Virus record (IMG/VR): IMGVR_UViG_2600255093_000008
Span: 15,992 to 79,991 of that record
Length of the DNA: 64,000 nucleotides
DNA from: a virus
Lineage: Duplodnaviria > Caudoviricetes
Strand: one strand, 5' to 3'
Within the stretch, counting starts at the first letter, position 1. Each line of letters opens with the position of its first letter. The position numbers and the translations under genes are program-made. Below are positions 24,585-53,124 of the stretch, one piece after another. The notes under the pieces are model-generated. The model searched no databases. It had not been told where the DNA came from and was given only the letters and a program-made list of their open reading frames with translations.

Positions 24585-24600
24585 GACCGGCTAATGGCAC
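24585..24600 (-). promoter_or_regulatory. Conserved 16-nt motif, copy A (GTGCCATTAGCCGGTC)
   Basis: One of 8 copies; followed by a short leader with GAGGG SD. Confidence 0.75.
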
Positions 24601-24606
24601 GGCGTG

Positions 24607-25008
24607 TCAGTCCGGCAGCGTAGGTGTGACAGTCAACCAGGTTGCGGGCACGAGCTGAACTCGCCCCGCGATCCCGCCCGCGGCGACAACATCGACCGCG
24701 TAGCGACGGAACCCGGCGCCGGCCGGGACGGTGACACTGAAGGCCAGTGTGGTCGCGTCTGCTACCGCGCCGACGGCCGTGGCGCTCACGGGCCAGCCGT
24801 CGGCGCGCGGATCGGTCGCCTTGTACTGGTCAGATCCCGACCGGCCGTTGCGATCGGAGTCCCACAGTGGATCAGCGCGCACCGTCAGAGTGATGGTGCC
24901 GTAGTCCGTGAGCGACAGGCCCGAACGGAGCGTACATTCCACTCGCACGGTCTGTGTCTGGAGGGCCGGCCAGGAGAGCACCGGTGCTTCGCGGATCTGC
25001 GATGGCAT
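24607..25008 (-). CDS. Ig-like virion protein (BppU N-terminal-like)
   Basis: Beta-sandwich pattern with RYAVDV; tail-module position. Confidence 0.5.
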   Translation of the reverse strand: MPSQIREAPVLSWPALQTQTVRVECTLRSGLSLTDYGTITLTVRADPLWDSDRNGRSGSDQYKATDPRADGWPVSATAVGAVADATTLAFSVTVPAGAGFRRYAVDVVAAGGIAGRVQLVPATWLTVTPTLPD

Positions 25009-25011
25009 GGC

Positions 25012-25617
25012 TCAGCACTCCAGGTCCGCCGTGAATGTCGTGACGCTGCGGTCGGCGCCGGTCAGGGTGACCACGGATCGATCGGCGCCCGTCATACAGA
25101 CGGCGACGCCGTCCGTCGGCACAACGGGAACCACATACCGGGTCGGCCGCAGTAGAACGCTTGCCCGGGAGACGAACGGGCGCACGAACGCGCCCCGGGC
25201 CACGAGCACGGGGAACTGCCGACGAGTTGCCGGAGCTGCACTGCGAGCTGGCACACGCAGCACCTGGCCGCGGACATGAACCGGTGCCGTGCGGAGCGCG
25301 CGAGCGACTAGGACGGCCGGGGGCCGTTTCGTCGGCGGAGCCACGATCGCTCGCGTGGGACGACCCACGATCGCTCGGCCGAGAACAGGCGCGATGCGCC
25401 GGGGCGCGGCCACGAGCACTGCGGGTGGACGCTTTGCAACGACCTGCGCCGCGGGCTTCGAGGGCCGGCCGACTGTCCCGCGGCCGACGAGCTGCCGGCG
25501 AACCTGTGCCACGACGATCGGGCGCACCGGGGGCCGCGCCGAAACGACGTTAGCCGCTCGCTGGGGCGAACCAACGAACGGCTTGCGGCGCCGGACTCCG
25601 GTGATGATCGTCGGCAC
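25012..25617 (-). CDS. Very basic Arg/Pro/Val/Ala repetitive protein
   Basis: Tightly packed in the operon; no Asp/Glu before residue 169. Confidence 0.65.
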   Translation of the reverse strand: MPTIITGVRRRKPFVGSPQRAANVVSARPPVRPIVVAQVRRQLVGRGTVGRPSKPAAQVVAKRPPAVLVAAPRRIAPVLGRAIVGRPTRAIVAPPTKRPPAVLVARALRTAPVHVRGQVLRVPARSAAPATRRQFPVLVARGAFVRPFVSRASVLLRPTRYVVPVVPTDGVAVCMTGADRSVVTLTGADRSVTTFTADLEC

Positions 25618-25619
25618 GA

Positions 25620-26078
25620 TTACTCTTCGTAGGTGACCTGCGCGGCCACGGTCGGCGTCCCCGTCGAGGTCGCTTCAATGTTCAGTGCCGCGCCGCCCGG
25701 GATACGGATCTCCATACCGGGGGGGAGGAACTCGATAATCCCCGATTGGTCGGGAACCTCATACAAGAGGCCCGTGTCGGTCGGCGTGGTCGGCTCCACG
25801 GTCGCGTTGCTGCCCGCGGTCGCCTGCAACGTCTCAGAATCGGACGTGTCATTCTTGCCCGGCGTCGCCGCGGAGAACGTCCCGAAGTTCGCGGTCGATC
25901 GCGTCAGCCGGACCTTGACCGGCACGCCCGTCCCGCCGGCCGCCGCCTTGCCGAACAATCGGATACTCTTCACGAGAACCCGCTGATTCGCCGGCGCCTT
26001 GATTTGAAGGATCGTCTTCGCGGTGTTCGCCACGAGCGCGACCTCACCGCTGTTCACGTGCGCTACGATGCCGGCCAT
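25620..26078 (-). CDS. Beta-rich virion structural protein
   Basis: Jelly-roll-like strand pattern; operon position. Confidence 0.6.
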   Translation of the reverse strand: MAGIVAHVNSGEVALVANTAKTILQIKAPANQRVLVKSIRLFGKAAAGGTGVPVKVRLTRSTANFGTFSAATPGKNDTSDSETLQATAGSNATVEPTTPTDTGLLYEVPDQSGIIEFLPPGMEIRIPGGAALNIEATSTGTPTVAAQVTYEE

Positions 26079-26080
26079 CG

Positions 26081-27277
26081 TTACCCCACAAGTTGCCAGG
26101 TGTTGGGCGTGAGTACCCGCGGCGGACCGCCCACCGTCCCGCCGCCGCTGTCCGCGTGTTGGAGCGCGCCCACGTCGCGATTGTTCGTGATCCCGGACGG
26201 GAACACGGCCGGGAAGCCCTTGCCCCGGAGCAGCGCCCCGCCTCCGGCCACGTTGTTCAAACTGAAGTCACGCGCGGCCCGGTTCACGAACGGGTCCGCG
26301 GTCAGGGTGAAATCCCCGAACCCGGCGCCCATGCCCGTGTATGCCCCCGACGTGTACGAGCCGTAAGCGTTGTTCCGCAGCACGCGCACTTGCGACATCA
26401 CGTAAGTTTGGGTCAGCGCCGTGTTCTCGATCCCGTACCCGATCGCGTAGAAAATGCTGTTCTCGATTTCGAGCGCGATCGTGCTCGTGGTCGTCCCGGT
26501 CTTGATCGCGCTCCCGGTGATGTCCACCCATATCGAGTCCCGCGAGATGATCGTGACCGGGGTGGCGGCGCTGGTGTTCGCGTTGATCCCCGCCGCGAGT
26601 CCGTCAATGATCGACTTCACCACCTCGAACGTGTACCCGATCCCGAACGACCCGCCGCGGGACAATTCCGAAGACGGGCAATCGTGGATGTCGCACCCGA
26701 ACAGCTTAATGAAGCCCCCGTTCGATCCCGGGAACAGGCTCGCCGTCGTGGTGCAGTTGAGCACCTCGCAGTTCTCCCAGACCCAGAACACGGACGCGAT
26801 GTTCGCGTTAATGGGGGCGAGGCACCCGTCTACCACGACATCCCGGCACACCAACGGGGAACTGGCCGAGGTCGCCAGGCTGAACGCGCCGCCCTTCGTC
26901 GTGGGGTGCGTCTGCGTGAACCGCAAGTGCGTGAACTCGAAGAAGTCGTTGTCGTTGAGGGCGAACACGTTCCCGCCCGATTGCGAGCACGAGAACGTGG
27001 GGCGCCCGTCTCTTGCTCCGGGCGTCGTCGTGTACCCCTCGATCACGTTCACGCCGTTGGTCGTGTCCCCCTTGAGCGCGGCCGGGAACGTGACCGCGGA
27101 CGCCTTGGCGTAGTCGGTCCCGGTGGCGCGCACCCAGATCCGGTTCCCGCCCCCGGTGATCGCGGCGAGCGCGGTGTCGAGGTCCGCGTAAGCCCCGGTC
27201 GAACCCGATCCCGGGTTGTCCCCAGTGTTCGTGTTCAGCCCGAGCACGTTGTCCACGTATTTGTTCGCGTTCGCCAC
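26081..27277 (-). CDS. Right-handed beta-helix tailspike/depolymerase candidate
   Basis: Pectin-lyase-like repeats; C-terminal DPFVN..ARDFSL...G...DVGALQ. Confidence 0.7.
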   Translation of the reverse strand: MANANKYVDNVLGLNTNTGDNPGSGSTGAYADLDTALAAITGGGNRIWVRATGTDYAKASAVTFPAALKGDTTNGVNVIEGYTTTPGARDGRPTFSCSQSGGNVFALNDNDFFEFTHLRFTQTHPTTKGGAFSLATSASSPLVCRDVVVDGCLAPINANIASVFWVWENCEVLNCTTTASLFPGSNGGFIKLFGCDIHDCPSSELSRGGSFGIGYTFEVVKSIIDGLAAGINANTSAATPVTIISRDSIWVDITGSAIKTGTTTSTIALEIENSIFYAIGYGIENTALTQTYVMSQVRVLRNNAYGSYTSGAYTGMGAGFGDFTLTADPFVNRAARDFSLNNVAGGGALLRGKGFPAVFPSGITNNRDVGALQHADSGGGTVGGPPRVLTPNTWQLVG

Positions 27278-27280
27278 GGT

Positions 27281-27658
27281 TCAGCCCACCGGGTTGGGAC
27301 GGGGGTTGACCGCGATCTTCCGGACCAGTGGCCCCAACTGGTCGTTCGCCGCGATCATCTGCCGGACCACCACGAGCACGCGCAGGAACGCGATCACGTC
27401 GTGGTTCGTGAGGAGACTTCGGGCGCCGGCGTCGCTCCCGGTGATGCCCTGCGCGGCCCCGAGCGCGGTGTAATCGCTCGCGTCCCACGGCTCGTCGCGG
27501 AGGAGTTCCGCGTCCGTGGTCCCGAGGGCCGCGGCAAGGCCCTGGCCAACGACCGCGTCAAGTGCCGCCGTCGGCACCGTGAGTACCCCGGCGAGCAGGT
27601 CCGCGGTCGCCCGCACCGTCTCATTGGTGAGCTTCAGAAGTACCGGGTTGTCGATCAT
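27281..27658 (-). CDS. Helical virion/tail-associated protein
   Basis: MIDNPVLLKL start chosen; operon position. Confidence 0.6.
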   Translation of the reverse strand: MIDNPVLLKLTNETVRATADLLAGVLTVPTAALDAVVGQGLAAALGTTDAELLRDEPWDASDYTALGAAQGITGSDAGARSLLTNHDVIAFLRVLVVVRQMIAANDQLGPLVRKIAVNPRPNPVG

Positions 27659-27887
27659 TGCCCGTGCCCTCCACCTTCGCGACCTTCTGCCACCCGATCT
27701 TTTTTGCGACGCGGAGGCACTCGACGTAGCTCGGGAACCGCACCCCGGCTTCGCGCTTGTATCTCTCGATCGCCGCGAGGAACTCTTCCTCGTCCGCGTC
27801 ATACTCGCTTCCGGGGAACGTCCCCTCGTGGCTCACGAGCTGGGGGATCGCGCCCCCTTTCCGCTTCTTGGGGAGGAGCTTCCTCAT
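27621..27887 (-). CDS. Conserved planctomycete-type small helical protein
   Basis: EYDADEEEFLAAIERYKR..G.RFP.Y.E.L.V.K.IG; ATG abuts motif copy B. Confidence 0.65.
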   Translation of the reverse strand: MRKLLPKKRKGGAIPQLVSHEGTFPGSEYDADEEEFLAAIERYKREAGVRFPSYVECLRVAKKIGWQKVAKVEGTGNDRQPGTSEAHQ

Positions 27888-27903
27888 GACCGGCCAATGG
27901 CAC
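27888..27903 (-). promoter_or_regulatory. 16-nt motif, copy B, abutting ATG
   Basis: GTGCCATTGGCCGGTC|ATG. Confidence 0.8.
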
Positions 27904-27908
27904 GCGAC

Positions 27909-28505
27909 TCAGGCCGCCCACGGGCGAACCCGACAGATCACGTCCTCGCACCACACCGGCCCATCGGGGTACTGCGCGCACGTGGTCGCCGCGAAGTCGC
28001 AATCCCCGACGTACCGCATCCCGTAGCGCCCGAGCTTCTCCGGGTCGTTGGGAAAGACCAGGCACGGGGTGCCGAGGTTTCCGACTCGCAACACGGGTTC
28101 ACCCGGTCGCCAGATGAGCGGGGCCGTCGGGTGCCCGCTCATGCGGAAGATGTGAGGCCGGTCGGGTGCGAGTCGCAGGGCCGCGCGAGCCGTGGCGATC
28201 GCGTCCGGGGTGTACTCGTCGTCGTCGTCCAGGGCCATAACGTGCGTGCCGGTGGCCTGTCGGCTGTCGAGCACCCAGTTGCGCGCGTGGTGCCCCCACG
28301 TGCCCGTTGTGCCCGTGTGCTCGATGTATCGCCCGGGAAGGCCCATCTGTCCGAACAGTTCGGCCGCGATCGGCTGCGGTCCGTCGCCCACCAGGAGCAC
28401 TTCGTCGCCCGGCTCCCACGCTTGAACGCGGAGCGAGCGCAGGGTGCGGGCCAGCGTGGGGCGGGAGATCGTTGCGATCACGAGCGAAAGCCGAACCTCA
28501 GCCAT
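27909..28505 (-). CDS. Glycosyltransferase family 2
   Basis: LSLVIATISRP, LLVGDG, RNW, MALDDDD motifs. Confidence 0.85.
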   Translation of the reverse strand: MAEVRLSLVIATISRPTLARTLRSLRVQAWEPGDEVLLVGDGPQPIAAELFGQMGLPGRYIEHTGTTGTWGHHARNWVLDSRQATGTHVMALDDDDEYTPDAIATARAALRLAPDRPHIFRMSGHPTAPLIWRPGEPVLRVGNLGTPCLVFPNDPEKLGRYGMRYVGDCDFAATTCAQYPDGPVWCEDVICRVRPWAA

Positions 28506-29583: not shown

Positions 29584-30830
29584 GGGATGTCCTCCGGGCA
29601 CAATTGCTCCTCGTTGAAGCAGTTGCAGATCCCCGTGAACCACGACGGCTCACCCGTGAGCGGCCCGTCCACCGTCGCCGTGAACTCGATGTAAATGATC
29701 CGGTTCACCAGGAAGTCAAAAGGCGGTATCGAGATACACGTGCGGGGGCTGTTGAACACGAACTGTGTCATTCCCGTGCAGCCCTTCGACGGGCCGTACC
29801 AGACGTTCACGATCCCGGTCCCGTTGATCGTCAGGCAGTTCGTCACGCTCGGCGGGGAACTGCTGGCGATCCGATCGTACACGTGCCAGGCCACGTCCCC
29901 GGCCTTCATGTCCGAGGGGAGTGCCCAGCTCGTGCAGCACGGGAGCCCCATGTTCGGGGGGCACGCGCTACAGTGCTCCTCGGCCTCCTCCTCGCTCTCC
30001 CACGGCCCGCCCGATTGCACGTCTAGCTCGCCCGAGCACGCTTCACCCACTTCCAGTTCCAGGGGGGTGTACGGCGTCCCCGGGTCCGAGTTCTTCGGGC
30101 GCGTGCAGTACCATCCGGCCGGGCAGCTCGCGCACACCTTCACGTACAGCACCCGCGAGCACACGTCGTCCGGGTCGTCCACGAAGTCCGGGTAAAAGAC
30201 CTTGCGGCGGAACGCGAACGTGACGCACGGGCACACCGAGCAGTCCTTGCGGCCAACGATATCGACCGCTGACGGCAGCCCCGAATTGAGTTTGAGCGAC
30301 GGGACGGCCGGATCGAACGTGATCGTATACGCGACACCGTTGATCGTGATTCCCTGATGGATCTCGACCGCCGGTGCGGTGCCCCCGACTTCTTGAATCG
30401 TCCAGTAATCGTCCGGCAGAGCGGCCACAAGCCAGCCGTCGCCGTTGCAATCGAGGCCGCTACCACCAGAACCGTCACGGTACTCGAACGCCAGCCCCGG
30501 AGCTGAACGGAGCGGCCTGAGCCACACTTTTGCGGTGCCATCGGTCGGTACGTCGGTGCGGCCGGTTACCTCGTAGGCCGCGAGCAGCGTCCCGTCGCCC
30601 ACTTCAGGTGCGCCGTCCAGCTCGGGGAACGTGGTCGGATCGCCGTCGTCCAGGCGGGCGAACCCGTAAGCGTTTCCGGTTGCGTGCGAGGTGATGACGG
30701 CCCAAAAACCGCGCGGGCTCCAATCTTCGATGGTCAGCGCGGTCAGGCCGTTATCGGGCGGCCGCCCGGAGACCGCAAGATTTCCGGAACCAGTCACAGA
30801 TTCGGCGGGTGAGCTTCGCACCGGGTACAT
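29580..30830 (-). CDS. Cys-rich tail tip/fibre protein
   Basis: GFWAVIT..NAYGF..YEV N-terminal spike-like domain; many CxxC pairs; ATG abuts motif copy C. Confidence 0.65.
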   Translation of the reverse strand: MYPVRSSPAESVTGSGNLAVSGRPPDNGLTALTIEDWSPRGFWAVITSHATGNAYGFARLDDGDPTTFPELDGAPEVGDGTLLAAYEVTGRTDVPTDGTAKVWLRPLRSAPGLAFEYRDGSGGSGLDCNGDGWLVAALPDDYWTIQEVGGTAPAVEIHQGITINGVAYTITFDPAVPSLKLNSGLPSAVDIVGRKDCSVCPCVTFAFRRKVFYPDFVDDPDDVCSRVLYVKVCASCPAGWYCTRPKNSDPGTPYTPLELEVGEACSGELDVQSGGPWESEEEAEEHCSACPPNMGLPCCTSWALPSDMKAGDVAWHVYDRIASSSPPSVTNCLTINGTGIVNVWYGPSKGCTGMTQFVFNSPRTCISIPPFDFLVNRIIYIEFTATVDGPLTGEPSWFTGICNCFNEEQLCPEDIP

Positions 30831-30846
30831 GACCGGCAAATGGCAC
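30831..30846 (-). promoter_or_regulatory. 16-nt motif, copy C, abutting ATG
   Basis: GTGCCATTTGCCGGTC|ATG. Confidence 0.8.
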
Positions 30847-30936: not shown

Positions 30937-31545
30937 GTGAGTAATCGAGTTATGGACGTCGAACGGTTGCCCTTCAGGTGCCCGACGTGTCGTGAAACGC
31001 TCCTCGCTCCTGTGACTTTGGCGGGCGTCACACAGTCCTGCCCAAAGTGTCACCAGGTGGTCACATGGGAGGCTCCACCAGCACAGACGGGCCGAATCGC
31101 ACGCCAACAATCGCGTAACGTGGCCTTTGCTGCACTGGTAATTGTCACTATCGGCGTCCTCATGTTCCTGAAGGGCGGTCAGGAGCTAGATCGATTGCAG
31201 CAGCCGTCTGTAAATGCGATCGATGCCGATTGGAGGGCGTACAGAAACGAGGAGGCCGGGCTGCTTCGCAAGGTTACCTGGGGTGTGATTCTTGTCGCTG
31301 TCGGATGTGGTCTTTACTACTTTGTGGTTCCCGCCACGAGACTCAGAGAATCGCTTGAGTCGCTTCAGCCTGTGACCGGTCGCTCCAAAGAGGAGATCGC
31401 TGGCGTACTCGGTGCCCCTGGTGAGGTGGAGAGATCGACCGATGGGAGCGTCACCCGCGAAACCTGGCGAACACTCAGGTTCCGATTCACACTCGAATTC
31501 CACCAGGGCGTGTGCGCCGGACTTGTCCACACGCGAGAGGACTAG
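30937..31545 (+). CDS. Zinc-ribbon, 2-TM, SmpA/OmlA-like membrane moron
   Basis: CPTC/CPKC; two hydrophobic helices; GRSKEEI..VLGAP motif; antisense inside the tail operon. Confidence 0.7.
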   Translation: MSNRVMDVERLPFRCPTCRETLLAPVTLAGVTQSCPKCHQVVTWEAPPAQTGRIARQQSRNVAFAALVIVTIGVLMFLKGGQELDRLQQPSVNAIDADWRAYRNEEAGLLRKVTWGVILVAVGCGLYYFVVPATRLRESLESLQPVTGRSKEEIAGVLGAPGEVERSTDGSVTRETWRTLRFRFTLEFHQGVCAGLVHTRED

Positions 31546-39721: not shown

Positions 39722-40822
39722 TTACGAGTCCCAGGTGATGCGCCCGGGCGCGGCCCCGGTTGTCGTTTTGGACTCTTTGGTCTGCTGCCCTTTGTCTCGC
39801 GGTGTGCTGATCGGCGTTTCGGCCCCACCGCCCGCAGACAGTCGCTTGTACGATTCGGCGATGACCTTGCGGCGATCGGGTTTAGCCGCGGCGATCGCTT
39901 CGAGATCGTCGGTGGAGTAGCCGGTGAACCCGACCGCCTTGCAAACGGCAATTGCTTCGAGGATCGCGGCGCCGTCCCGGGCCTTCTGCTTGCCTTCGGG
40001 TGTGGCTGGATCTCCGTCGTCGTCCACCTTGTCGGGTTTGGTTGCGTCGGCAACCGCGTCGCCGTGGCTGTTGAGCAGGTTCTTGATCTTGGCGAGCGCG
40101 TCTTTGGGTTCCATGTCGCCGCTGAGGGCGTTGTCAATAACGGCCATGAGCGCAGTCTTGAACCCGGCGCTGATCGCCGCGTTGACGTCGTCGCTCTCGC
40201 CCGGCCCTGCGTCCATGTCCGTGGCGACGTCGGCCATGCCGTCCATCTCGGACAGGGCCTTGATCTTGAGCACCTGCTTCGTGGTGCTCTTGGGGTGTTT
40301 CGCGATCGACTCGGCCAGTTGCTTGATTGTCAGCGGCACTTTTCGGCCCTCAAAGAGTCCCTTGGTAGTGGCCGGTTGTGCCACCAGATCGATTGATTCC
40401 ACTTCGCGGATCGCCTCAACTACCTCACGCCCGCCCGGTCCGCGGCGCGTATCGCACATTGCGACGTGCGAGAATCCGAACAGGGCGGGATTCTTCTCCG
40501 CGGCCTCCATCACCCGCTCGTACATGGGGTGTTTGGTGAGGCAGTGGAGCGTGCCGCGGGGCTTGCCGTCGGCGTCGATCTTTACCCCTTTGAACCAGCC
40601 GAACACGCGGTCGACCGTGGCGTCACGGCCGTGATCGCAGTTGACGGGTTTCCCCTCGTACTTGCCAAAGTCGCGCTTGAACACGCTCACCGGGTAATCG
40701 CGCCCGTTGGCGCTGACCGTCCCGCAGATGAGCACGCCGCTGATAGTGCCCGCTTCCCGGTCGACTTTGGCGCCGGTGAAAGGTGCCGCAACGCGCTCGG
40801 TGATGCGTACTGCGATCGTCAT
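39722..40822 (-). CDS. Prohead core protease fused to scaffold
   Basis: SANGRDY, NCDH, GFSH, SIDLVAQPAT; acidic helical C-terminus. Confidence 0.85.
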   Translation of the reverse strand: MTIAVRITERVAAPFTGAKVDREAGTISGVLICGTVSANGRDYPVSVFKRDFGKYEGKPVNCDHGRDATVDRVFGWFKGVKIDADGKPRGTLHCLTKHPMYERVMEAAEKNPALFGFSHVAMCDTRRGPGGREVVEAIREVESIDLVAQPATTKGLFEGRKVPLTIKQLAESIAKHPKSTTKQVLKIKALSEMDGMADVATDMDAGPGESDDVNAAISAGFKTALMAVIDNALSGDMEPKDALAKIKNLLNSHGDAVADATKPDKVDDDGDPATPEGKQKARDGAAILEAIAVCKAVGFTGYSTDDLEAIAAAKPDRRKVIAESYKRLSAGGGAETPISTPRDKGQQTKESKTTTGAAPGRITWDS

Positions 40823-40838
40823 GACCGGCCAATGGCAC
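40823..40838 (-). promoter_or_regulatory. 16-nt motif, copy D, abutting ATG
   Basis: GTGCCATTGGCCGGTC|ATG. Confidence 0.8.
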
Positions 40839-41208: not shown

Positions 41209-44066
41209 GACATCCCCTTGACCAGTTCCCGGAGCCGCTGTTCAACCGTCGCCGCGTCGGGTGCGGCACGCTCGACGCTAAGCTGCTCGTTAAGGTGGGT
41301 GAACAGTTCGGCGATCATCGCGGCCCACACACCGAACCCGTCGTCGGTGTCCACCGCTTCACCGCGGACCTTGTGAGCGGCCCAATACGCGGCCTTGACG
41401 ATCACCTTTGAGGCAATCGACGCGACGAGGTGCCCAGAGATGCCGAACCCGAGCGCATCGTTGAGATTCGAGGACACCGCGTCGGCAGTCTTCGGGTTGG
41501 CCGTTCCGGAGCTGAGGTTCGGGTTGTAGCCGAGCAGCTTCATGTCGCCCGGGGTATCCAGAATCGCACCGAGTATCCCACCGATGCGTTCGGCCGCGGG
41601 ACTCAGGCGAATCGACCACTCGTAGGCTTTCACGGCCGCGGTCAGGGCCAGATCCTTGACGCGCGCGACGGTGCCAGCGGGCGGGCGCTTGTCGGCTGGC
41701 AGTGCCGCAATGTCCTTGTCGATGCCTGCGGTGATGGACGCGCGGTCGTCGTCGTGCAACTCGTGGGCGCGGTCGGGTGCGGCGGCGTCGGACGGACCGT
41801 TACCTTTAACGCGGCGCTGGTACGTGGTCCCGTTCGACAAATGGACGTCGATTATCCGATCTTCCCAGACAATCGCCTTGATCGGTGCCGATTCCTTTTT
41901 CGCCGGCGCGACCTGACCCTTCACGAGCACCTTGCCGTCGGGCAACACGACCGGCGGGCGAACGACAACGCCCGTATCGCCGGGGAACATCCCCGCGGGT
42001 GCGTAGTACAGTGCGCCGGAATGTTTGACCGGCTCGCCCTTCTTCGGCCCGGTCGTCGCGGCGCCGGTGATCGGCAACACACGCTCGATGGCCGCTTGAG
42101 CCTCGACGTGGCCGAGGTCGTGAGCGTGCATCCATACCGACGCGAGTTCTTGCGCCAAGTCCCGAGCGTCGCCGTCGGTCGCGTTGAAGAGCGCGGATTC
42201 GAGGTAGTCTTTCGCCACCGGGTCCGTGGCCTGAGAAATGGCCGCTTTGGTCGCGCTGAAGGGGTCCGATTCGGTCGACTGGTCGGGCGCCTTAGCGACC
42301 TGTTTGCCGTCAACGTAATGCCGCTCGCGCCCCTTCGCGTCCTTGATGGTGCCCGTGAAACCTTCTTTCAGAATGGCTTCACCGAAGATTCCCCCGTCAT
42401 CCGGAGACGTGCCGTCACCGCCCGCACTGCCCGGGGGTGTGGGCGTGGGATCTTTCGGACCGGCCGTCGGCGCTGGTACCGGTGCGGGAAGTCCGCCCAT
42501 CTCTGTCAGCTTCTTCTTGTGGCTGGCAAGGTTCGCGAGCAGCACTTTTGGATCGTCGCCGGCAGCGCTCATCCACTTGTAGGGATCGGCCACACCCTTA
42601 TCGAGTAGCGCGAGGAAGGTACGAGCCTTCTTTTCTTCGTCGGCGATCACAACCGGCTTCGAGGTCAGCACGGGCTTCACCCGCCGCCACGTGCCCTGTG
42701 GCAGCCGGCCCGATTCCTCGCACAGCAGAATCACGCGCTCGATAACGGACCGCGTGAACCCTTGCTGCTTCTTCTGGCGACCTTCGATGATGCGGACGAA
42801 GGGGGAGCCGGACACGAGGCTCGACGCGAACGAGTCGGCCTCTCCGGAGAAGGAAGACGGCAGGCCGAAGCGGAAGCTGATGCTCCGCATGATGGCCTGC
42901 TCGACCTGGACGAACCCGTTGGGTTGCGACGTCGGCCCCACCTGGACGTTGCGCCCGGCTTCGGTGCGGATGATCGAGCCGGCGTCGTAATTCTTCACAT
43001 CCACGCGCGCAGCATTTGAGCCTTGCCCCGGTCCACCGAGCCGCAGGCCCTGATAGTCGCGGTTCGTTTCGATATGCCGGCGGAGATTGTCTTCGGTCGT
43101 GTTGGCGTACTCTTCCCACCACGCAATTGCCGCTTGCAGTCGAGCCACGTGGCCCATGTTTTCGAGCAGGCCCGCTACCTTGCGCACCAGCTCAGCGACC
43201 GGCCGGAAGTCGCTCATGCCGCGTTTCACGACGCGGTCAACGTTATGCTTCGTGCGCACGAACCGGTTCGCCGGGATCACGCGCCCGCCGTCGCGGTCCG
43301 GGTGGGCCACGTAGATCGCCGGCACTGTCTCGGCGTCGTGGGGCTTGGTGAGCGCGCCCCACTTCCAGTCTTCGAGGCTGGCCCAATCAAAGTCGCGCGG
43401 CACCTCATCCGGTGTGCGGATTAGCTCAGGCTCAACGTGACGGCACACGGGCACTTCGCCCCGACCGCCGCGGAAAAACTCGAGAGTCGCTTCCCCTTCA
43501 AGGATGCTGCGCCCGATGCACTCCTCTTCCCGGTCCGTCTCGCCCTGGCCCCAGTCGTTGACCTCGCACCACTCGTCCCATGCCTCTTGTACAGTGCGGA
43601 CGAGCGGGTCAACGTCCGTCTGACCGTCGCCGTCGGCATCGACCGGGCCGGACGCGGTGGAGCCGGGCGCCTGGCCGCGCAACACGAACTGTACGGACAC
43701 GGGACCGATGAACGCCTTGACGTGATCCCTGAACCCGATCAGCAGGTGATTTCGCTGCGCCATCTCGCGCACGAGCGACAGGTGCAGGCGCCATTCCTCT
43801 TCGGTCAGGTACGGCAGCGCCGCGTGCGTGCGGTCGTCGGCCCGGTCCGCGGGATAGCCCCCACCGAACCCACCGAGGTAACCGAACGTGCCGTCATAGA
43901 ATCGGTCGAATCGCCAGGAGACGGCGTCGAGTGCAGCAATCTGCTCGCGGACCCGGCCTTCCGCGAGCGCGAGTTGCCGACGAAGTGTGGTCAGACCCTC
44001 TGGTTCCGATGAACCAGAGGTTGCGGGGAGTGCTTCGGATGTGGTCAGCGTGATGGCCGGATACAT
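41205..44066 (-). CDS. Lambda-family portal protein with about 400-aa C-terminal extension
   Basis: DGE-like ILEGE, VEPE, H....DR..KRGMSD portal motifs; ATG abuts motif copy E. Confidence 0.85.
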   Translation of the reverse strand: MYPAITLTTSEALPATSGSSEPEGLTTLRRQLALAEGRVREQIAALDAVSWRFDRFYDGTFGYLGGFGGGYPADRADDRTHAALPYLTEEEWRLHLSLVREMAQRNHLLIGFRDHVKAFIGPVSVQFVLRGQAPGSTASGPVDADGDGQTDVDPLVRTVQEAWDEWCEVNDWGQGETDREEECIGRSILEGEATLEFFRGGRGEVPVCRHVEPELIRTPDEVPRDFDWASLEDWKWGALTKPHDAETVPAIYVAHPDRDGGRVIPANRFVRTKHNVDRVVKRGMSDFRPVAELVRKVAGLLENMGHVARLQAAIAWWEEYANTTEDNLRRHIETNRDYQGLRLGGPGQGSNAARVDVKNYDAGSIIRTEAGRNVQVGPTSQPNGFVQVEQAIMRSISFRFGLPSSFSGEADSFASSLVSGSPFVRIIEGRQKKQQGFTRSVIERVILLCEESGRLPQGTWRRVKPVLTSKPVVIADEEKKARTFLALLDKGVADPYKWMSAAGDDPKVLLANLASHKKKLTEMGGLPAPVPAPTAGPKDPTPTPPGSAGGDGTSPDDGGIFGEAILKEGFTGTIKDAKGRERHYVDGKQVAKAPDQSTESDPFSATKAAISQATDPVAKDYLESALFNATDGDARDLAQELASVWMHAHDLGHVEAQAAIERVLPITGAATTGPKKGEPVKHSGALYYAPAGMFPGDTGVVVRPPVVLPDGKVLVKGQVAPAKKESAPIKAIVWEDRIIDVHLSNGTTYQRRVKGNGPSDAAAPDRAHELHDDDRASITAGIDKDIAALPADKRPPAGTVARVKDLALTAAVKAYEWSIRLSPAAERIGGILGAILDTPGDMKLLGYNPNLSSGTANPKTADAVSSNLNDALGFGISGHLVASIASKVIVKAAYWAAHKVRGEAVDTDDGFGVWAAMIAELFTHLNEQLSVERAAPDAATVEQRLRELVKGMS

Positions 44067-44082
44067 GACCGGCCAATGGCAC
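44067..44082 (-). promoter_or_regulatory. 16-nt motif, copy E, abutting ATG
   Basis: GTGCCATTGGCCGGTC|ATG. Confidence 0.8.
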
Positions 44083-44085: not shown

Positions 44086-44490
44086 CTACACCTGGTGCGT
44101 GCCTTCGACGCCACGTGCGAGTCGATCCTTCGTGCGTTGCTGCAAAGACGCACGCGCGGACCGCAGTGAGCTGAGCGCGTCTGCGTTGTACGGATGCGCG
44201 AACGGGCCGTTCTGGAAACCCTCCAGTCGGTCGATCAGGATCGTGAGCAACACTTCGTGCGTCAGCCCGTTAGTTCCGACTTCGGGGATCGGGCCGTTTT
44301 GGAACAGGATCGTCGAATGTTGAGCGGGCTGACCATGACGCGCCGTCCACGGATCGGACGGATTAGTTCCGCTATTGAATCCTTCGACCTGGTAGAGGTG
44401 CGGCGCGCCGCCCTTGCCCGGCTCGTCGAGCACAGTGATAGTGAGATGGTCGTTGCAACCGTTTACCTTGTGGCCGTTCAACTCGCGCAT
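44086..44490 (-). CDS. tad1: Tad1-family anti-Thoeris signal sponge
   Basis: GGAPH.Y, FQNGP..E.G.NG, LL.ILIDRL.GFQ.GPF...N, RT.DR..RGVEGT match the recalled Tad1 motif set. Confidence 0.82.
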   Translation of the reverse strand: MRELNGHKVNGCNDHLTITVLDEPGKGGAPHLYQVEGFNSGTNPSDPWTARHGQPAQHSTILFQNGPIPEVGTNGLTHEVLLTILIDRLEGFQNGPFAHPYNADALSSLRSARASLQQRTKDRLARGVEGTHQV

Positions 44491-44520: not shown

Positions 44521-44536
44521 GAACGGCCAATGGCAC
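44521..44536 (-). promoter_or_regulatory. 16-nt motif, copy F
   Basis: GTGCCATTGGCCGTTC, then a 30-nt leader with GGAG SD. Confidence 0.75.
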
Positions 44537-45230: not shown

Positions 45231-45286
45231 TCTCCAAAGGGATCGTGCCAGGATGCGCAGTCGGAACAGAATGTCATCGCCGGCCT

Positions 45287-46929: not shown

Positions 46930-47695
46930 CAGCCGTTCCCCGGCCGCCCAAATGCGGCGGAGCGAAGAGGGGGCGAAGGGCAGTGAGGAGAGCTGCGAGT
47001 TCATCGGGGGCCATCTTGGTCAGGTCCGGCAGGTCGCCGTCTTTGATCTTCACCACGTCCTCGAACATGCCGAGGTGCCGCGCGACGTTGACCAGTGCGG
47101 CGTGTTGGTCGTTGAGTTTGGCTTCGATTCCCTCTTTGGTTTGCTTCACGCCGGCGTAGAGGCACTTCGCCGCGGCAGACAGCAACCGAGTGTCTTTGAT
47201 GTGGGTTCGGCCTTCGCCCTCACCGAAGCACTCGGAGCAGTCCGGGTGAGGCGGCTTCCTCGCGTCGTAACCGTCGCCCCCCATTGTGGCGAACGTGCCG
47301 GGGTGCGGTTCCTTCGAGTTGGCCTGGTGCGCACGGACCAGCACATCGTGCGCGGCCCGATCCCGCTCCAACTCCCCCTGCGTGCGCTGGTACCGGTTCC
47401 CGCGACCGTGGCAGTACCGGCAGCACGTCCGCCGGTACTCCACGATCTCGTTCGCATCGGCCGTCGCGATCGACCAGAACCGCTGTAGGACCGCGTCCGC
47501 ACTGATCTCCGTGCTTTTACTGCGTTTCGCAATCGCCGCATCGATCGCCGCTTTTACGTCAACAAAAGTCAACAACCGCTGACCGATCTGCTTCGCCGTC
47601 TTTGCCGAATACCCTGCCCGAATAGCGGCTTGCGTTGCGTTCAGATCGATCAGGTATTCAGCGACGAAACGCTGTTGCTTGGGTGTAAGAGCCAT
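46919..47695 (-). CDS. terS: Terminase small subunit with Cys-rich insert
   Basis: LTPKQQRFVAEYLIDLNATQAAIRAGYS; CCRYC and CSEC. Confidence 0.93.
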   Translation of the reverse strand: MALTPKQQRFVAEYLIDLNATQAAIRAGYSAKTAKQIGQRLLTFVDVKAAIDAAIAKRSKSTEISADAVLQRFWSIATADANEIVEYRRTCCRYCHGRGNRYQRTQGELERDRAAHDVLVRAHQANSKEPHPGTFATMGGDGYDARKPPHPDCSECFGEGEGRTHIKDTRLLSAAAKCLYAGVKQTKEGIEAKLNDQHAALVNVARHLGMFEDVVKIKDGDLPDLTKMAPDELAALLTALRPLFAPPHLGGRGTADGA

Positions 47696-47711
47696 GCCCG
47701 GCAAATGGCAC
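47696..47711 (-). promoter_or_regulatory. 16-nt motif, copy G, abutting terS ATG
   Basis: GTGCCATTTGCCGGGC|ATG. Confidence 0.78.
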
Positions 47712-48439
47712 TATTCCGCACCTGCCGATTCTTCCGTCAGATCGCGAATCACCACTGTGAGCGTCTCATACGCCGGCCAGCGATCACCCTCGAACGGCAC
47801 CCCGTGACGCTCGGCAACCTGCCGAAACCGATCGGCCAGTGGACCGGCCAACAGCTCGGGAATCGCACCAAACACGCGATCCCGGTCGGCGCGGTACAAA
47901 GTCGATAACGCCCGCCGGAACCGTTCCAGGGGCCGAAACGCCAAGTTTGAACCGGGGGGTTCAAGCTCAAGACCGGCCGCACTTGCGATATCCCTGACAA
48001 TTTGCGTCTGACTGATACCCTCGGCATGAGCGATATCACGTGTCGTCAGGCCACGGTCACGCAACGCGACAATGCGGGCCAGTCGCTCTTCGCGCCGGGC
48101 ACTCTGCTCGGCCGGACTCAGGTGCCTGCGATCAATGTTCAGGTCCAGGCACTCGATCCGCGCGTCGTCGTCGCTCATCGGCCCCCGGTGTTGGACCGGA
48201 ATATCGATCGGGTGTTCCATCTCGCTCACGATCCGCAACCGATTGGCCCCGTCGATCACGCACCGATCACCCCATGTCGGGCTGTCGTAAGTCACGACGC
48301 GAGTCAGGACCCTGCGACGTCGGGTAATCGACTCCGTAAGGCCCGCGGCCTCCCGCTTGTTCAGCGGCCGGATCAGATCAGCAAACGGGAGCCGGTATAA
48401 CAGCCCGCCCAGGCGAATCACCTTCACTGTCTCACTCAC
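47711..48439 (-). CDS. ParB-like N-terminal domain plus HTH protein
   Basis: FADLIRPL..L.ESI, VIDGANR, LNIDRRHL, GLTTRDIAHAEGISQTQI. Confidence 0.8.
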   Translation of the reverse strand: MSETVKVIRLGGLLYRLPFADLIRPLNKREAAGLTESITRRRRVLTRVVTYDSPTWGDRCVIDGANRLRIVSEMEHPIDIPVQHRGPMSDDDARIECLDLNIDRRHLSPAEQSARREERLARIVALRDRGLTTRDIAHAEGISQTQIVRDIASAAGLELEPPGSNLAFRPLERFRRALSTLYRADRDRVFGAIPELLAGPLADRFRQVAERHGVPFEGDRWPAYETLTVVIRDLTEESAGAE

Positions 48440-48630: not shown

Positions 48631-48645
48631 CTAATGCCCTCCGAA

Positions 48646-49092
48646 TCAGATCTGCCGACCCGCTGCCAACTCACGAGCGCGGGCCTGGATCTCGCGACAG
48701 GCCGCAACAACCCCGACCGTGTCACGCCACTGGCGAGCGGCCACACAGCGCGATGCCGCTGCGCTGATGACCTCATCGAAGCCGCTGACACGTAATTGGC
48801 CGATCATCCCGTCCGTTTCGCTCTCAAGCGCAGCCAGAGGCCCTGGCTGCCACGCGCGGAGCCACTCCAGCACTTCGGGTTTCCGGGCGACTAGCTGCTC
48901 ACCGACGGACCGGGCTTCCTTCGGGCCTTTGATCCGCAGCGAATCGCCATCCACGATGAGCGCGATACCCGCTCGAACGGCTTGAAAGACCAGTTCCGGG
49001 ACCGAATCGCAGGTTTGCCGCAGGTTTGACGCAGGTTCCAACGCAGGTTTCCTCCGAAATCGGTTGTCGCAACCTGTTGAAAGATAAAGCAC
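48646..49092 (-). CDS. TubC-N-like small protein following primase/helicase (start uncertain)
   Basis: AGIALIVDGDSLRIKGP...L..RKPEV. Confidence 0.55.
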   Translation of the reverse strand: MLYLSTGCDNRFRRKPALEPASNLRQTCDSVPELVFQAVRAGIALIVDGDSLRIKGPKEARSVGEQLVARKPEVLEWLRAWQPGPLAALESETDGMIGQLRVSGFDEVISAAASRCVAARQWRDTVGVVAACREIQARARELAAGRQI

Positions 49093-49384
49093 TTACAAAG
49101 ACACCGCAGGTTTCGCAGGTTTGAAACCGGGTTAATCACCTCACACATGCGCGTATGCACACGCACACACGCATGCACGGGCGCCCGCGTATACGCTAAG
49201 GTGGGCAAAGAAACCTGCGAAACCTGCGGTGTTTCCATAACTCGTTCACTAATGCCATGTTGTGGACTGCCTGTTTTTGAGAAACCTGCGTTGAAACCTG
49301 CGATAAACCTGCACGAAACCTGCGGTGTAAGCTGGGTCAGAATGTCGCTCGGGATTTCGGCTCGGAAACCTGCGGCAAACCTGC
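49009..49384. repeat. Replication origin: 14 AAACCTGC iterons in two opposing sets around a purine-pyrimidine tract
   Basis: GCAGGTTY at 49009, 49020, 49031, 49043, 49106, 49115; AAACCTGC at 49211, 49220, 49282, 49294, 49305, 49316, 49366, 49377; RY tract 49142-49178. Confidence 0.82.
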
Positions 49385-49385
49385 A

Positions 49386-51500
49386 TCACGCTGTGATGTC
49401 GAATTCCTCGTCAGACTCCGCATATTCATTTCTGGGCTTGGCTTCCGGCTTCTTGCTCGCCTTCACCTCTTGCAGCTTGTAACGCGGCCTACCGCTGTGA
49501 TCGCGGTCCTCTTTGCCGTCCTGCCGAGTGACAGCCACGATGCGGTACCCGGCGCACACGCGGTCCCGCTGCTTCCGGAGGAAGCGCCCTAGCTGCTTCT
49601 TCCGGCCGTCGTCGTTCTCCGCGGTCAAAACGGATTCGAGAATCTCTTTCGCATCGGTGAACAGCTCCGACGCCATAACGGGAAGTGAATGGTGGCGTTC
49701 CCACCAAGCGCGGACGAACTCCGGCATCTCGTTCGCCTCGTTCGCGGAGAGTTGACGGAACTCCTCCGCGTTACCCAGCAGCCCATCAATCCCCGCGGCC
49801 GCGAGGATGCCACCCACAGTGCGGGACCAGTGCTCGAACTTGCCGAGCGTCTCGGAGCCGGGCGGACGGCCCTGCGTGAGCCAGTTGTTCACAAGGGTGA
49901 TGAGTGCGGCGAGCAGCCGTTCCCGGTTGTCTCGGATCCACTGGTGAATGTCGGGGTGGCGGTAACCGACGTGCTCGCTCGGGTTCTCCTCCCCACGGTC
50001 CAGGCGAATCCAGTAGACGCGGCGGGCGATCTCGCGGGACACAAGGACGTTGTTCCCAGTGAGGAGCCAGCATACGTTGACGCGAGCGCGGGCAACGGTG
50101 GACGAGCCGAGGATGCGGCCGCGCTTGTATTTGGACGTGAGAGCCGCCGCGAGGTTGCCACTATCAACGGTCTTATTCGCGTTGTCGAAGTACACAACGG
50201 GCGAGCCGGCAATCAGTTCGGCCAGGAGCAGCTTGTTCCACTCCTCGTCTGAGAGGTCGGGACTCATCGCCTGAGGGATTTCGCCGATCGTGGTGAGTGT
50301 GACCACTTCCGCCAGCAACGATTTTCCCGTTCCTTCCGCCGGTGCGTCGATCAGCGCGAGCGGGGTCGGGCCGTCGATCGCGTGGCGGATCAGTGGCAAG
50401 ATCAGCATCGCAACCGCGTTGGCACGGCTCGACTGATCCACGAACGGGAAGTCGCCGAGCAGCTCCGTGACGATCAGCTCCCGCGCGGCCTCGACCTCTT
50501 CGACCGACGGCCGGACCGGGACCGATGGGAGCGCGAGCGAACCGAGGTCGCAGTAGATCAGGGACGACGGGTGATAGCCGGAGGTCGCGGCCAGTTCCCA
50601 TTTGGGACCGAATACCGGATAGGTAGCGACCGAACGCAAATGTGGGATACCGGGCCACGCACCGCGGGCCGGAAAGCTCGTCAAAAGCGGTAGGGGCGGG
50701 AAGTCGTCCTTATAAGTGACACCCTGACTCGTTTCTTTGCGCGAGATCCAGTTGGCCACGCGCGCGAGCACGCCACGCAGCGAGTACGTATCCAGCTCGC
50801 GGGCCATCAGAGACGAATCAGGATCGCTCTTCTGGAGGTCGACCAGGCCGCACCCATTACCCACGAACACGGACGGCGGGTCGTTGGCACGGACGAGGGC
50901 CTGCAGCGCGTCCGACTCGACGTCGCGGTACTGGCGCCCGTTGTGGACGATGTCCGGCAGGTCGTTGAGCGTGGAACCGTGGCCGTCGCCGTCACCGGCG
51001 GGCGGTGGCACACCTCGACCGGAACCGGCCGGCTGCTCGGACCGCGTGCGGGACCGCGATTCGCTCGGTGCGTTCCAGCCCGGCCGGTCCTCCTGCAGCT
51101 TCCACCCGCGCCCCTTTGGACAGGGTCCGCGATCGACCGCCTCATTCCATTTGCGGCGCAGCCCCTGCTTCCCGTCCTCTTCCCACGGCGGTGAACAGGT
51201 CGCGTTGTACTCGTCGAGCAGCGCGTAGCCGTCGGCTTCATCCACGCCGAAGTCATTCCAGATGACTCTGGCCGCGTGAAAAACGCGATCGCTCCCGTTC
51301 TGGCCCTCGACCGACGGGGGCAGTGTCTTCAGGTAGGCACGGCACCTCGCGACGCGGTTGTCCGCGTGCGGTCCGGTGCCCCGGGGCCGCTCGGCTCGTG
51401 GTGGGGCTGCAGCCCGACGCGCCGCTTCCTCCGCCGCGATCTCCGCGAGATATTCGGCCGCTACTTGCTCGATCAATTCGCGCGGGGTGACCTGACACAC
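49386..51500 (-). CDS. PriCT domain plus P-loop (SF3-like) helicase
   Basis: ARCRAYL...GQNGS..F..A..YNATCSPPW; APAEGTGKS Walker A; YFDN. Confidence 0.85.
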   Translation of the reverse strand: MCQVTPRELIEQVAAEYLAEIAAEEAARRAAAPPRAERPRGTGPHADNRVARCRAYLKTLPPSVEGQNGSDRVFHAARVIWNDFGVDEADGYALLDEYNATCSPPWEEDGKQGLRRKWNEAVDRGPCPKGRGWKLQEDRPGWNAPSESRSRTRSEQPAGSGRGVPPPAGDGDGHGSTLNDLPDIVHNGRQYRDVESDALQALVRANDPPSVFVGNGCGLVDLQKSDPDSSLMARELDTYSLRGVLARVANWISRKETSQGVTYKDDFPPLPLLTSFPARGAWPGIPHLRSVATYPVFGPKWELAATSGYHPSSLIYCDLGSLALPSVPVRPSVEEVEAARELIVTELLGDFPFVDQSSRANAVAMLILPLIRHAIDGPTPLALIDAPAEGTGKSLLAEVVTLTTIGEIPQAMSPDLSDEEWNKLLLAELIAGSPVVYFDNANKTVDSGNLAAALTSKYKRGRILGSSTVARARVNVCWLLTGNNVLVSREIARRVYWIRLDRGEENPSEHVGYRHPDIHQWIRDNRERLLAALITLVNNWLTQGRPPGSETLGKFEHWSRTVGGILAAAGIDGLLGNAEEFRQLSANEANEMPEFVRAWWERHHSLPVMASELFTDAKEILESVLTAENDDGRKKQLGRFLRKQRDRVCAGYRIVAVTRQDGKEDRDHSGRPRYKLQEVKASKKPEAKPRNEYAESDEEFDITA

Positions 51501-51501
51501 G

Positions 51502-52248
51502 TCATGCTCCGATCGTAGACGGCACTTCGAGGACGCGGCACATGCGGTGCGGGCGCTCCGGGGTGCTGTCACCCTTCCGCGCCCACGTACCGGGGATCTT
51601 GATGATGCGACTCGGATTGAAAACGGTCGTGTCCACGCCCGCGAGCGGCGTGTTGTGGCGTCGTGCCATCTGCTTCAGCGTGCGTTCGATCTGGCCCCCG
51701 TCGTCGCGGGGCAGATCGACGCGGTACCACAGGTGGAACCCGTTCCCGCTGTCGATGAACATGGGAGCCCGGAACCCGCGGGCACTCAGATCGGACCGCA
51801 CGCCGTCGATCACCGAGCGGGCCGCGGCCTTTTCCTCGTCGGTGGAGCTGACACCGGCGATGCGGCGCTTCGGGTCGACGTCCACGACGACCCACCGGCG
51901 CGAGACCACGTCGCCATCGTCCGCGGAGATCTTCGCCAGCCCGTCACCCATCCGGTTGTTAGCGCGGGACAGGTAGACCGGGTCCACGCCGTTCATCGTG
52001 ACGTAGATCCCGGCCGGCTGCAGCTCAAGGGGGCGCGAGACGTACCCCTTGACGGCTTCCCAGAAGCCGCGCTTGCCCGGTTCGGTGAGCAGATCGAAGA
52101 ACCCGGCCTCGGTGCGCGGGCGCCCGTACCGCTGCGGGGCGTTCGGCACCCGCAGTTCGACCACGAGCGAGCCGACGGCACCGGCAGTGAACACCGGGAC
52201 AAAGCGTTTCAACTGCTCGCCACATTCGTTAATGGCGCTCTGTTCCAC
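51502..52248 (-). CDS. AEP primase-polymerase catalytic domain
   Basis: IYVTMN, VVDVD, DSGNGFHLW, NPSRIIKIPGT. Confidence 0.88.
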   Translation of the reverse strand: MEQSAINECGEQLKRFVPVFTAGAVGSLVVELRVPNAPQRYGRPRTEAGFFDLLTEPGKRGFWEAVKGYVSRPLELQPAGIYVTMNGVDPVYLSRANNRMGDGLAKISADDGDVVSRRWVVVDVDPKRRIAGVSSTDEEKAAARSVIDGVRSDLSARGFRAPMFIDSGNGFHLWYRVDLPRDDGGQIERTLKQMARRHNTPLAGVDTTVFNPSRIIKIPGTWARKGDSTPERPHRMCRVLEVPSTIGA

Positions 52249-52331
52249 CCGCACGCCTCCATTGCGTCGAACGGCCCGTGTGGACGTGTTCCACACGGGC
52301 CGTTATTAGTTCCGCCGCAGCCCTGGCGGGC

Positions 52332-52634
52332 CTACTCGGATGACTGGTTATCGATCCACTTCTGAAGCTCGCAGATGGTGCCAGAGAGCCGGCACGCGAC
52401 TGCGTACCAGTACCCTGCGTGAATCTCGGTCAGGTGATCGCGAAACGTCTGAGTTCCGCCGTCGCCTTTAGTTGGTACCGCGTCGGCAATCAGCTTCGGC
52501 AGGATCGCGACAGCACACTCTCCGCAGACGTAAACATCCTGACGGCCCGACCACATAGCTGAGGCCAGGTCGCCGCAATTGAAACACGGCTTGGCTGGCG
52601 GGGCCTCTTCGGGCCGGGGGTACTGAATTCGCAT
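52332..52634 (-). CDS. Zinc-finger hypothetical protein
   Basis: CFNC...CGEC. Confidence 0.55.
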   Translation of the reverse strand: MRIQYPRPEEAPPAKPCFNCGDLASAMWSGRQDVYVCGECAVAILPKLIADAVPTKGDGGTQTFRDHLTEIHAGYWYAVACRLSGTICELQKWIDNQSSE

Positions 52635-53077
52635 CAGACAGCCTCTCTGCTTTTCTGGTTCCTTCCGGTGGCCACTTTGCGAACGTTCTGTTCGGCCTCG
52701 GCTCGTAGTTCGGCCCGCGCCGCGGCGAGTTCTTCGGGAGTAGGGAACCGCCGACCGGTGATCGCCTCACACAACTCCTTCAGCACCGCGGCGCCGCGCT
52801 CGACAATGCTGAGCGCGGCGCGATCGTCTGCGAATTCGGCGCGCATCACCTCACCCCACGTAAACGCGACCCGCGGAAACATGATCGCGGCCGGGCGCTG
52901 GTCAGCGGGGCGCTGGTCGATCTCGTCGGAGACAACCAGGTCGATGCCCAACTGTTTCTTTGCGATCGCCCGCCAAGTGTCGGACGTGTCCTCGTGATCC
53001 GCGAGCCACGCCCAATAATCAGGTGGCACCCGGTCGAGAGGTTCGCCGCGGTATCTACCGAACGGGATGCGGAGCAC
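52634..53077 (-). CDS. DUF3820-like protein
   Basis: IPFGRYRGEPL..VP.DY..W; GGAGG SD. Confidence 0.75.
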   Translation of the reverse strand: MLRIPFGRYRGEPLDRVPPDYWAWLADHEDTSDTWRAIAKKQLGIDLVVSDEIDQRPADQRPAAIMFPRVAFTWGEVMRAEFADDRAALSIVERGAAVLKELCEAITGRRFPTPEELAAARAELRAEAEQNVRKVATGRNQKSREAV

Positions 53078-53108
53078 GTGGCCCTCCGTAGTCAGTAAGC
53101 CTGCGACG

Positions 53109-53124
53109 AATCGGCCAATGGCAC
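53109..53124 (-). promoter_or_regulatory. 16-nt motif, copy H
   Basis: GTGCCATTGGCCGATT, then a leader with GGAGG SD. Confidence 0.7.

Follow-up and report, generated by a model that had tools for sequence, protein, structure and literature searches.

The stretch analysed here, called the window below, comprises 64,000 nucleotides (nt) of DNA from a virus (Duplodnaviria; Caudoviricetes), namely positions 15,992 to 79,991 of IMG/VR record IMGVR_UViG_2600255093_000008. It corresponds to C6:15994-79993 of the analysed bacterial assembly (9.27 Mb, 22 contigs) and carries a prophage in which a 16-nt motif recurs in front of genes. The pattern GTGCCATTDGCCGDKY matches eight times in the window, every time on the minus strand, and is absent from 100 dinucleotide-preserving shuffles. 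Its 13-base core, GTGCCATTNGCCG, occurs eight times in the entire assembly, on one strand, and these occurrences are the same eight copies; permitting two mismatches adds background matches only. An earlier note on this DNA, made from the letters alone, had listed eight minus-strand copies, and all of them were located where it placed them.

In gene order, which runs from high to low coordinates, copy 1 (GTGCCATTGGCCGATT, 53109..53124, minus strand like the others) is followed by a 31-nt leader in which the Shine–Dalgarno (SD) sequence GGAGG stands 5 nt from a GTG start at 53077. The block behind it holds a 147-amino-acid (aa) gene, a 100-aa gene, a RepB-primase-like gene, a primase/helicase gene and a ParB/Srx-like gene. 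Copy 2 (GTGCCATTTGCCGGGC, 47696..47711) shares 1 nt with the TAG of that ParB/Srx-like gene and abuts the ATG at 47695 of terS, which matches phrog_51 in PHROGs with an alignment beginning at residue 1 of the N-terminus. Copy 3 (GTGCCATTGGCCGTTC, 44521..44536) precedes a 30-nt leader with GGAG, 6 nt and an ATG at 44490, the start of a 134-aa gene of phrog_2428 that the earlier note labelled "Tad1-like". Copies 4 and 5 both read GTGCCATTGGCCGGTC; the former (44067..44082) directly precedes the 953-aa portal gene (phrog_21, ATG at 44066), the latter (40823..40838) a 366-aa head-module gene (ATG at 40822). Copy 6 (GTGCCATTTGCCGGTC, 30831..30846) runs directly into a 416-aa tail-region gene with its ATG at 30830, and copy 7 (GTGCCATTGGCCGGTC again, 27888..27903) into an 88-aa gene with its ATG at 27887. 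Copy 8 (GTGCCATTAGCCGGTC, 24585..24600) is followed by a 20-nt leader with GAGGG, 6 nt and a GTG at 24564, which appears to be a better start than the ATG at 24570 because it fits the SD sequence better. Among the gene names proposed previously, terS and portal were confirmed by PHROGs; "protease/scaffold" and "tail tip" have no family match, and neither do the tail-end "glycosyltransferases" in the domain and PHROGs scans.

The eight copies split the prophage into blocks: replication genes including the ParB-like gene; terS with terL and a QueC-like gene; the 134-aa gene; the portal gene; head and tail genes; the tail end; the block of the 88-aa gene; and a last block in lysis position, the "lysis-position module" of the earlier note. 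The early region of the window upstream of 53124 (to about 63 kb) contains no copy. Because the first copy precedes replication genes, the motif is not solely a late signal, a point on which the earlier reading is not supported. The stop codon of a co-directional gene lies −1 to 6 nt before the motif in seven copies, as had been claimed for most of them. The exception is the copy at 30831, where the TAA is no more than a stop in frame, with a divergent open reading frame (ORF) on the plus strand as the upstream neighbour. This ORF (30937-31545, plus strand, 202 aa), which runs opposite to the tail genes, has two CxxC pairs with a weak Zn_ribbon match and then a hydrophobic, transmembrane segment, and it resembles an insert of the moron type. 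Between its start and copy 6, which face each other, lie about 100 nt holding the hairpin GGGTAC-TAAA-GGTACCC.

Starts in the window follow an either/or pattern. An ATG stands immediately 3′ of five copies (47696, 44067, 40823, 30831 and 27888), leaving no room for an SD-like word, whereas the other three (53109, 44521 and 24585) have a leader of 20–31 nt with an SD sequence at the normal spacing of 5–6 nt from the start codon. Both observations had been made in the earlier note, down to the words GAGGG, GGAG and GGAGG, and both were borne out. Prophage genes that lack the motif show an SD-like word or an overlap with the gene before them. The 3′ end of the host 16S rRNA reads CCUCC, the canonical anti-SD sequence, and at 450 unambiguous host starts G is enriched from −12 to −8, with an SD word in 47%. 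Since the host uses SD sequences, their absence at the motif genes is meaningful.

The motif belongs to a lineage of prophages. A portal-based search of the genome-contig and viral-contig sets returned no relative; a genome search yielded portal homologues of 33–54% identity in genomes of the same genus and at a second locus of the same genome (C2 near 502 kb), the source names of the relatives being Gemmata and Frigoriglobus. Regions of 60 kb around nine related portals were inspected, and 44 copies were curated from seven genomes of the Gemmata/Frigoriglobus group. These copies are not wholly independent, since the prophages of G058, G056 and C2 look closely related, their orthologous copies being nearly identical. 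In the form nTG[A/C]CAT[C/T]nG[C/T]CGG[G/T]n, the motif has one to eight gene-strand copies in each of the nine prophages. It stands at the portal gene in all nine and at terS in three; the 366-aa head gene has a homologue in every prophage and the motif at seven of these, with no curated copy for G062 and G076. The sequence behind the motif is conserved from the ATG onward (for example ATGTAYCC in portals), and the start positions are therefore fixed. The comparison with related planctomycete prophages that had been proposed as a check accordingly finds the motif conserved before orthologous genes. At G058:C1:3309310-3316323, two portal genes with near-identical 5′ ends lie 5.4 kb apart, each preceded by the motif. 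In G076 the palindromic word CGCCCGCGCGGGCG occurs about 15–17 times in the 40 kb around the prophage, which suggests a REP-like repeat family there.

Beyond these prophages, the remaining 251 genomes of the family contain the exact 13-mer as scattered background without clusters. Five genomes with strand-biased 13-mer counts (G062, G042, G085, G161 and G086) were considered as motif carriers and rejected, their hits being unclustered. The looser form GTG[AC]CATNNGCCGG has 10 matches genome-wide, eight of them inside the two prophages of this family. A strict motif-plus-ATG pattern, TGMCATYNGCCGGNNATG, gives three to six matches per genome in six genomes of the genus and at most two, scattered, in each of the remaining genomes of the 252-genome family, with almost none for the reversed control pattern. 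In IMG/VR, more than one motif copy was found in only two contigs, both Gemmata-type.

Aligned with the A of an abutting ATG as +1, the 44 copies define a conserved block of exactly 16 nt. Every column upstream of −16 carries at most 0.23 bit, so there is no −35 element, in agreement with what had been noticed in the window. Within the block, T at −15 occurs in 40 of 44 copies and G at −14 in all; −13 is always A or C, −12 to −10 are invariably C, A and T, and −9 is always C or T. The stretch from −7 to −3 reads G, C, C, G, G, each base in 38–43 copies, with G at −7 in 41. The variants at −13 and −9 are uniform in the window prophage and in G057a and mixed in the other prophages. Neither GGAG nor AGGA lies inside the motif. 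Scans for intrinsic terminators and consensus sigma-70 promoters remained at or below shuffle level, no Rfam-type RNA family was found in the 20–64 kb part of the window at E≤1, and the motif alone forms no stable hairpin.

The distance to the start is as restricted as the sequence. In 24 copies the start follows at 0 nt and in six at +1, and all 30 of these starts are ATG, against an ATG share of about 58% (our own count) among the other genes of the prophage. The remaining 14 copies lie 8–47 nt from the start or have a start that was not placed; at least seven of them have an SD-led start 14–47 nt downstream. For many copies in the relatives, the upstream stop codon is not close, at distances from 20 nt to over 1000 nt. 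Divergent ORFs, or gaps of 250–1200 nt without a called co-directional ORF, precede the portal copy of G082 and the terS copies in the prophages of C2, G056 and G058. Translational re-initiation after termination, which the earlier note had raised as an alternative, is weakened as a general explanation by such copies. The terS copy of the C2 prophage follows a 650-nt non-coding gap (region G000:C2:499265-499725) with three copies of a direct repeat of about 40 nt (CCAGGGGTGAAGGCGCGTCATTGCCC...) and a long pyrimidine tract; this stretch may be a cos/pac or terminase-binding region.

The 30 copies that abut an ATG, with no SD sequence there, also admit an explanation at the RNA level. The motif could act within long polycistronic mRNAs as a non-SD initiation signal, bound by a factor that loads ribosomes on the adjacent AUG. 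The operon-like placement of window copies 0–6 nt after a stop codon and a G+C-rich core that is atypical of a melting site would both fit, and the start-associated sequences (SAS) of Cluster K mycobacteriophages are likewise ATG-biased and absent from the host genome (PMC3203893). The 14 copies that are set back or lack a placed start speak against it: at least seven have their own SD sequence, and because this lies at normal spacing, the motif is neither needed nor rightly placed for translation there. Complementarity to the small-subunit (SSU) rRNA and its 3′ tail is no better than for shuffled sequences, in an assembly whose SSU copy looks incomplete; neither an Rfam match nor a stable conserved hairpin was found, and host genes do not use the motif. 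We consider a signal of this kind improbable.

Pairing with 16S rRNA was set aside on the shuffled comparison, and although 10 of 16 bases agree with the 530-loop/515F sequence, this is similarity rather than complementarity and is treated here as coincidence. The only SSU rRNA match, G000:C2:240985-241967, covers model positions 1–1533 in 983 bases, and the 530-loop sequence GCCGCGGTAA was not found; the match probably represents a 16S copy that is partial or collapsed in the assembly. A separate feature of the RNA concerns the portal gene (44067-44033, minus strand) and the 416-aa tail gene (30846-30812, minus strand). Because both open with ATG-TAY-CCG-G, the GCCGG of the motif and the CCGG(C) of codons 3–4 form an inverted repeat around the ATG, with a predicted energy of −15 kcal/mol in the portal copy. 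On this folding prediction, the repeat might bury the ATG in read-through RNA.

The host itself offers a geometry with which the motif can be compared. Upstream of candidate in-frame ATGs of long ORFs with high third-position G+C content, the hexamer TAnnnT begins at exactly −12 in 110 cases, compared with about 33 at neighbouring positions, and at −13 in 53. No such peak is seen upstream of host GTG codons. When the set was narrowed to unambiguous starts, TAnnnT at −12 occurred 24 times, each time in a gene without an SD sequence. This distribution suggests that TAnnnT at −12 marks leaderless genes, approximately 75 or more of them in the sampled set, and that the host translates leaderless mRNAs provided that they begin with AUG. 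It also shows host sigma-A reading what appears to be an ordinary −10 box. Hexamer enrichment upstream of 104 tRNA genes gave no usable host promoter consensus. A requirement of leaderless translation for a 5′-terminal AUG was reportedly described by Brock et al. in 2008. Leaderless genes with a −10 box 6–7 nt before the AUG are found in Actinobacteria and Deinococcus-Thermus (ProTISA, PMC2238952); for Gemmata, we found no report of the host TAnnnT signal at leaderless genes. The phage motif has the register of the host box, with an invariant A at −11, TG at the extended −10 position and both spacings, 0 and +1.

We therefore favour reading the motif as a lineage-specific promoter for leaderless middle and late mRNAs in temperate phages of the Gemmata group, a proposal whose chances we judge to be about evenly balanced. 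It is preferred because it needs the fewest extra assumptions and matches the leaderless geometry of the host. RNA polymerase would be positioned by the block from −16 to −1, with TG at −15/−14, C-A-T at −12 to −10 and GGCCGG at −8 to −3, and we infer that transcription would begin at the base after the block. In about two thirds of the copies that base would be the A of the ATG, giving a leaderless mRNA for which no SD sequence is required; in the rest it would open a leader of 14–47 nt, at least half of these with a recognizable SD sequence of their own. An element that fixes the 5′ end of the RNA explains why a copy is followed either by an ATG or by an SD leader, why abutting starts are always ATG, why the copies share one orientation and why they stand at the heads of gene blocks. 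An ATG at 0 or +1 after the block would fit a transcription start 6–8 nt downstream of the hexamer. Several copies, behind divergent ORFs or long gaps, head transcription units, which supports a promoter. The promoter and leaderless-mRNA reading of the earlier note is accordingly retained as the best fit, without the canonical −10 box, given the G at −7 and the G+C-rich core.

Several observations weigh against this promoter, in its own sequence and setting as well as in the search for a factor that would read it. The TG of an extended −10 is present, and A occupies −11 in all 44 copies, but the TAnnnT hexamer is not formed, with C at −12 in all 44 and G at −7 in 41. The G+C-rich stretch from −8 to −1 should resist melting. 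The proximity of seven of the eight window copies to a stop codon, within 6 nt, is also compatible with a long transcript that is processed or re-initiated. The terS copy of the C2 prophage has a TAGAAT about 50 nt before it, which could be a conventional promoter and would then place the motif in a 5′ untranslated region. As to the factor, Sigma70_r2 matches 135 times in the genome and in neither prophage. The T7-type polymerase model PF00940 matches nowhere in the genome, nor in 14 control genomes. All-against-all BLAST of the nine prophages finds structural genes alone to be shared by all or nearly all (terL in eight, the portal and the 366-aa head gene in nine), and because no non-structural gene is common to all nine, there is no candidate reader.

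The same search left no large unexplained ORF common to the nine prophages, and Pfam, PHROGs and NCBIfam scans of about 45 ORFs, with two Atlas look-ups, found no sigma factor, activator or NusG-like protein. The sigma-like gene mentioned in the earlier note could not be substantiated in the prophage: beyond the absence of Sigma70_r2, the sole Sigma70_r4_2 match (E=0.095) is a helix-turn-helix in the ORF at 61375-62304 (DUF7227 and HTH_17), although a very divergent sigma could escape these models. Because there is no T at −7 and the motif is absent from host genes, we infer that the unaided host sigma-A holoenzyme does not read it; a phage factor, or a host factor commandeered by the phage, would be the more likely reader. 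The host genome has at least 135 Sigma70_r2 and at least 150 Sigma70_r4_2 matches, many in open frames of 500–1300 aa; alternative sigma factors thus seem to be very numerous in the host, and many would be fused to long extensions. A more specific form of the proposal is tentative and, in our estimate, unlikely: the motif would represent a new promoter class outside the reach of unaided host sigma-A and of any recognizable sigma or T7-type polymerase. A small phage protein, or one of the 130-odd alternative sigmas of the host commandeered by the phage, would direct RNA polymerase to the G+C-rich 16-mer, with every middle and late mRNA starting on its AUG. If this were true, the whole virion programme of these planctomycete phages would run on leaderless translation.

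The pattern of an abutting ATG or an SD leader would equally be predicted if the motif were a processing site, where an endonuclease cuts the late transcript just 3′ of the motif and leaves monophosphate ends that carry an AUG or an SD leader. The tight packing of genes in the window makes the necessary read-through plausible, and the prophage has an RNase H-like gene (PF13456) immediately upstream of copy 1, a gene also present in the closest relative, G057a. Linear specificity over 16 nt without conserved structure would, however, be unusual for known endoribonucleases, no nuclease is common to all nine prophages, and copies at strand switches or long gaps would still need a separate promoter, itself unconserved. 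Processing is, in our view, quite improbable.

A protein-binding array is a further alternative, either for silencing by a repressor in the manner of stoperators or as sites for the ParB/Srx-like protein. The gene for the latter (47711-48439, minus strand), a ParB/Sulfiredoxin-like protein with a weak helix-turn-helix, lies directly upstream of terS. Its homologues (36–53% identical) occur in most of the related prophages at varying positions, and in G057b the motif stands before the ParB/Srx-like gene. The sites are asymmetric, co-oriented, located in short intergenic gaps, variable between phages and absent from the host, as stoperators are. Binding alone would nevertheless leave unexplained the 0/+1 distance to the ATG, the restriction to ATG and the missing SD sequences. 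No ParB-like gene was found in G076, yet that prophage has three copies. Because A and C at −13 and C and T at −9 are mixed within most prophages, there is no clean co-variation of protein and site, and the copies number only one to eight per prophage, with none in the early region of the window. We regard such an array as very improbable.

Other candidates were rejected. GTGCCA is the reverse complement of the sigma-54 −24 box TGGCAC, but a sigma-54 site is excluded by variants with GTGACA and by the lack of conservation in the flank. The absence of the motif from the host and its tie to ATGs do not fit a Chi-like hotspot, a primase site or a packaging site.

Phage-specific promoters, late promoters without a −35 element and leaderless phage mRNAs are already known kinds. 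In the searchable papers, neither this element with its non-canonical, G+C-rich core nor its deployment in a lineage of planctomycete prophages is described; among these papers we found none on gene control by viruses of Planctomycetes and none with a Gemmata promoter consensus. If the promoter reading is true, the 16 bp would make a small, portable and probably inducible promoter for use in organisms in which genetic engineering is difficult. Together with the host TAnnnT signal at −12, it would also indicate that translation of leaderless mRNAs is routine in Gemmata. A direct test is feasible in G. obscuriglobus, which can be cultured and harbours two prophages bearing the motif, G057a with six copies and G057b with five (G057:C1:8.44-8.50 Mb and 1.40-1.46 Mb).

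Among known systems, the promoters of the single-subunit polymerases of T7, T3, SP6 and Syn5 are contiguous conserved sequences of about 16–23 bp that end at the start site and have no separate −35 element. The Gemmata motif resembles them as one block ending at the presumed start, with phage-specific variants and several copies per genome. It differs in that its carriers are temperate prophages with unrelated early regions, where no T7-type gene was found (the controls were also negative). Late promoters of the T4 type have a −10 element only and are read by the phage sigma gp55; no phage sigma was found in the Gemmata prophage. The stoperators of Cluster A phages (the L5 gp71 sites) are bound by the immunity repressor, number about 24–36 across the genome and keep no fixed distance to starts, and the genes near them retain SD sequences. 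They share with the motif an asymmetric site of 13–16 bp, short intergenic gaps, orientation with transcription, phage specificity and multiple copies, whereas the motif has one to eight copies per prophage rather than dozens and mostly a fixed spacing of 0 or +1.

Many transcripts of Thermus phage P23-45 are said to be leaderless. Its middle and late promoters are of the extended −10 type and are read by host sigma-A remodelled by gp39 and gp76 (Berdygulova 2011, via PMC7403470). They are comparable in being phage middle and late promoters without a −35 element and with TG upstream of the −10, and they differ in keeping a recognizable −10, whereas the Gemmata prophages have no identifiable box or remodelling factor. 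The SAS of Cluster K mycobacteriophages contain an AGGAG SD core, lie 3–7 bp before the start and occupy the non-structural half of the genome (Pope et al. 2011, PMC3203893). Both elements are asymmetric repeats in one orientation at many gene starts, biased toward ATG, conserved across subclusters or prophages ahead of differing genes and absent from the host, and the function of both is unproven. The Gemmata motif, in contrast, has no SD core at 3–7 bp and directly adjoins the ATG; it is found at structural, lysis and replication blocks and, in addition, 14–47 nt before SD-led genes.

The leaderless boxes of the host come close in geometry, with a hexamer at −12 to −7, then 6 or 7 nt and the ATG, an A at −11, restriction to ATG and no SD sequence. 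They are degenerate TAnnnT hexamers, whereas the phage element is a near-invariant 16-mer with C at −12, G at −7 and G+C-rich sequence at the discriminator position.

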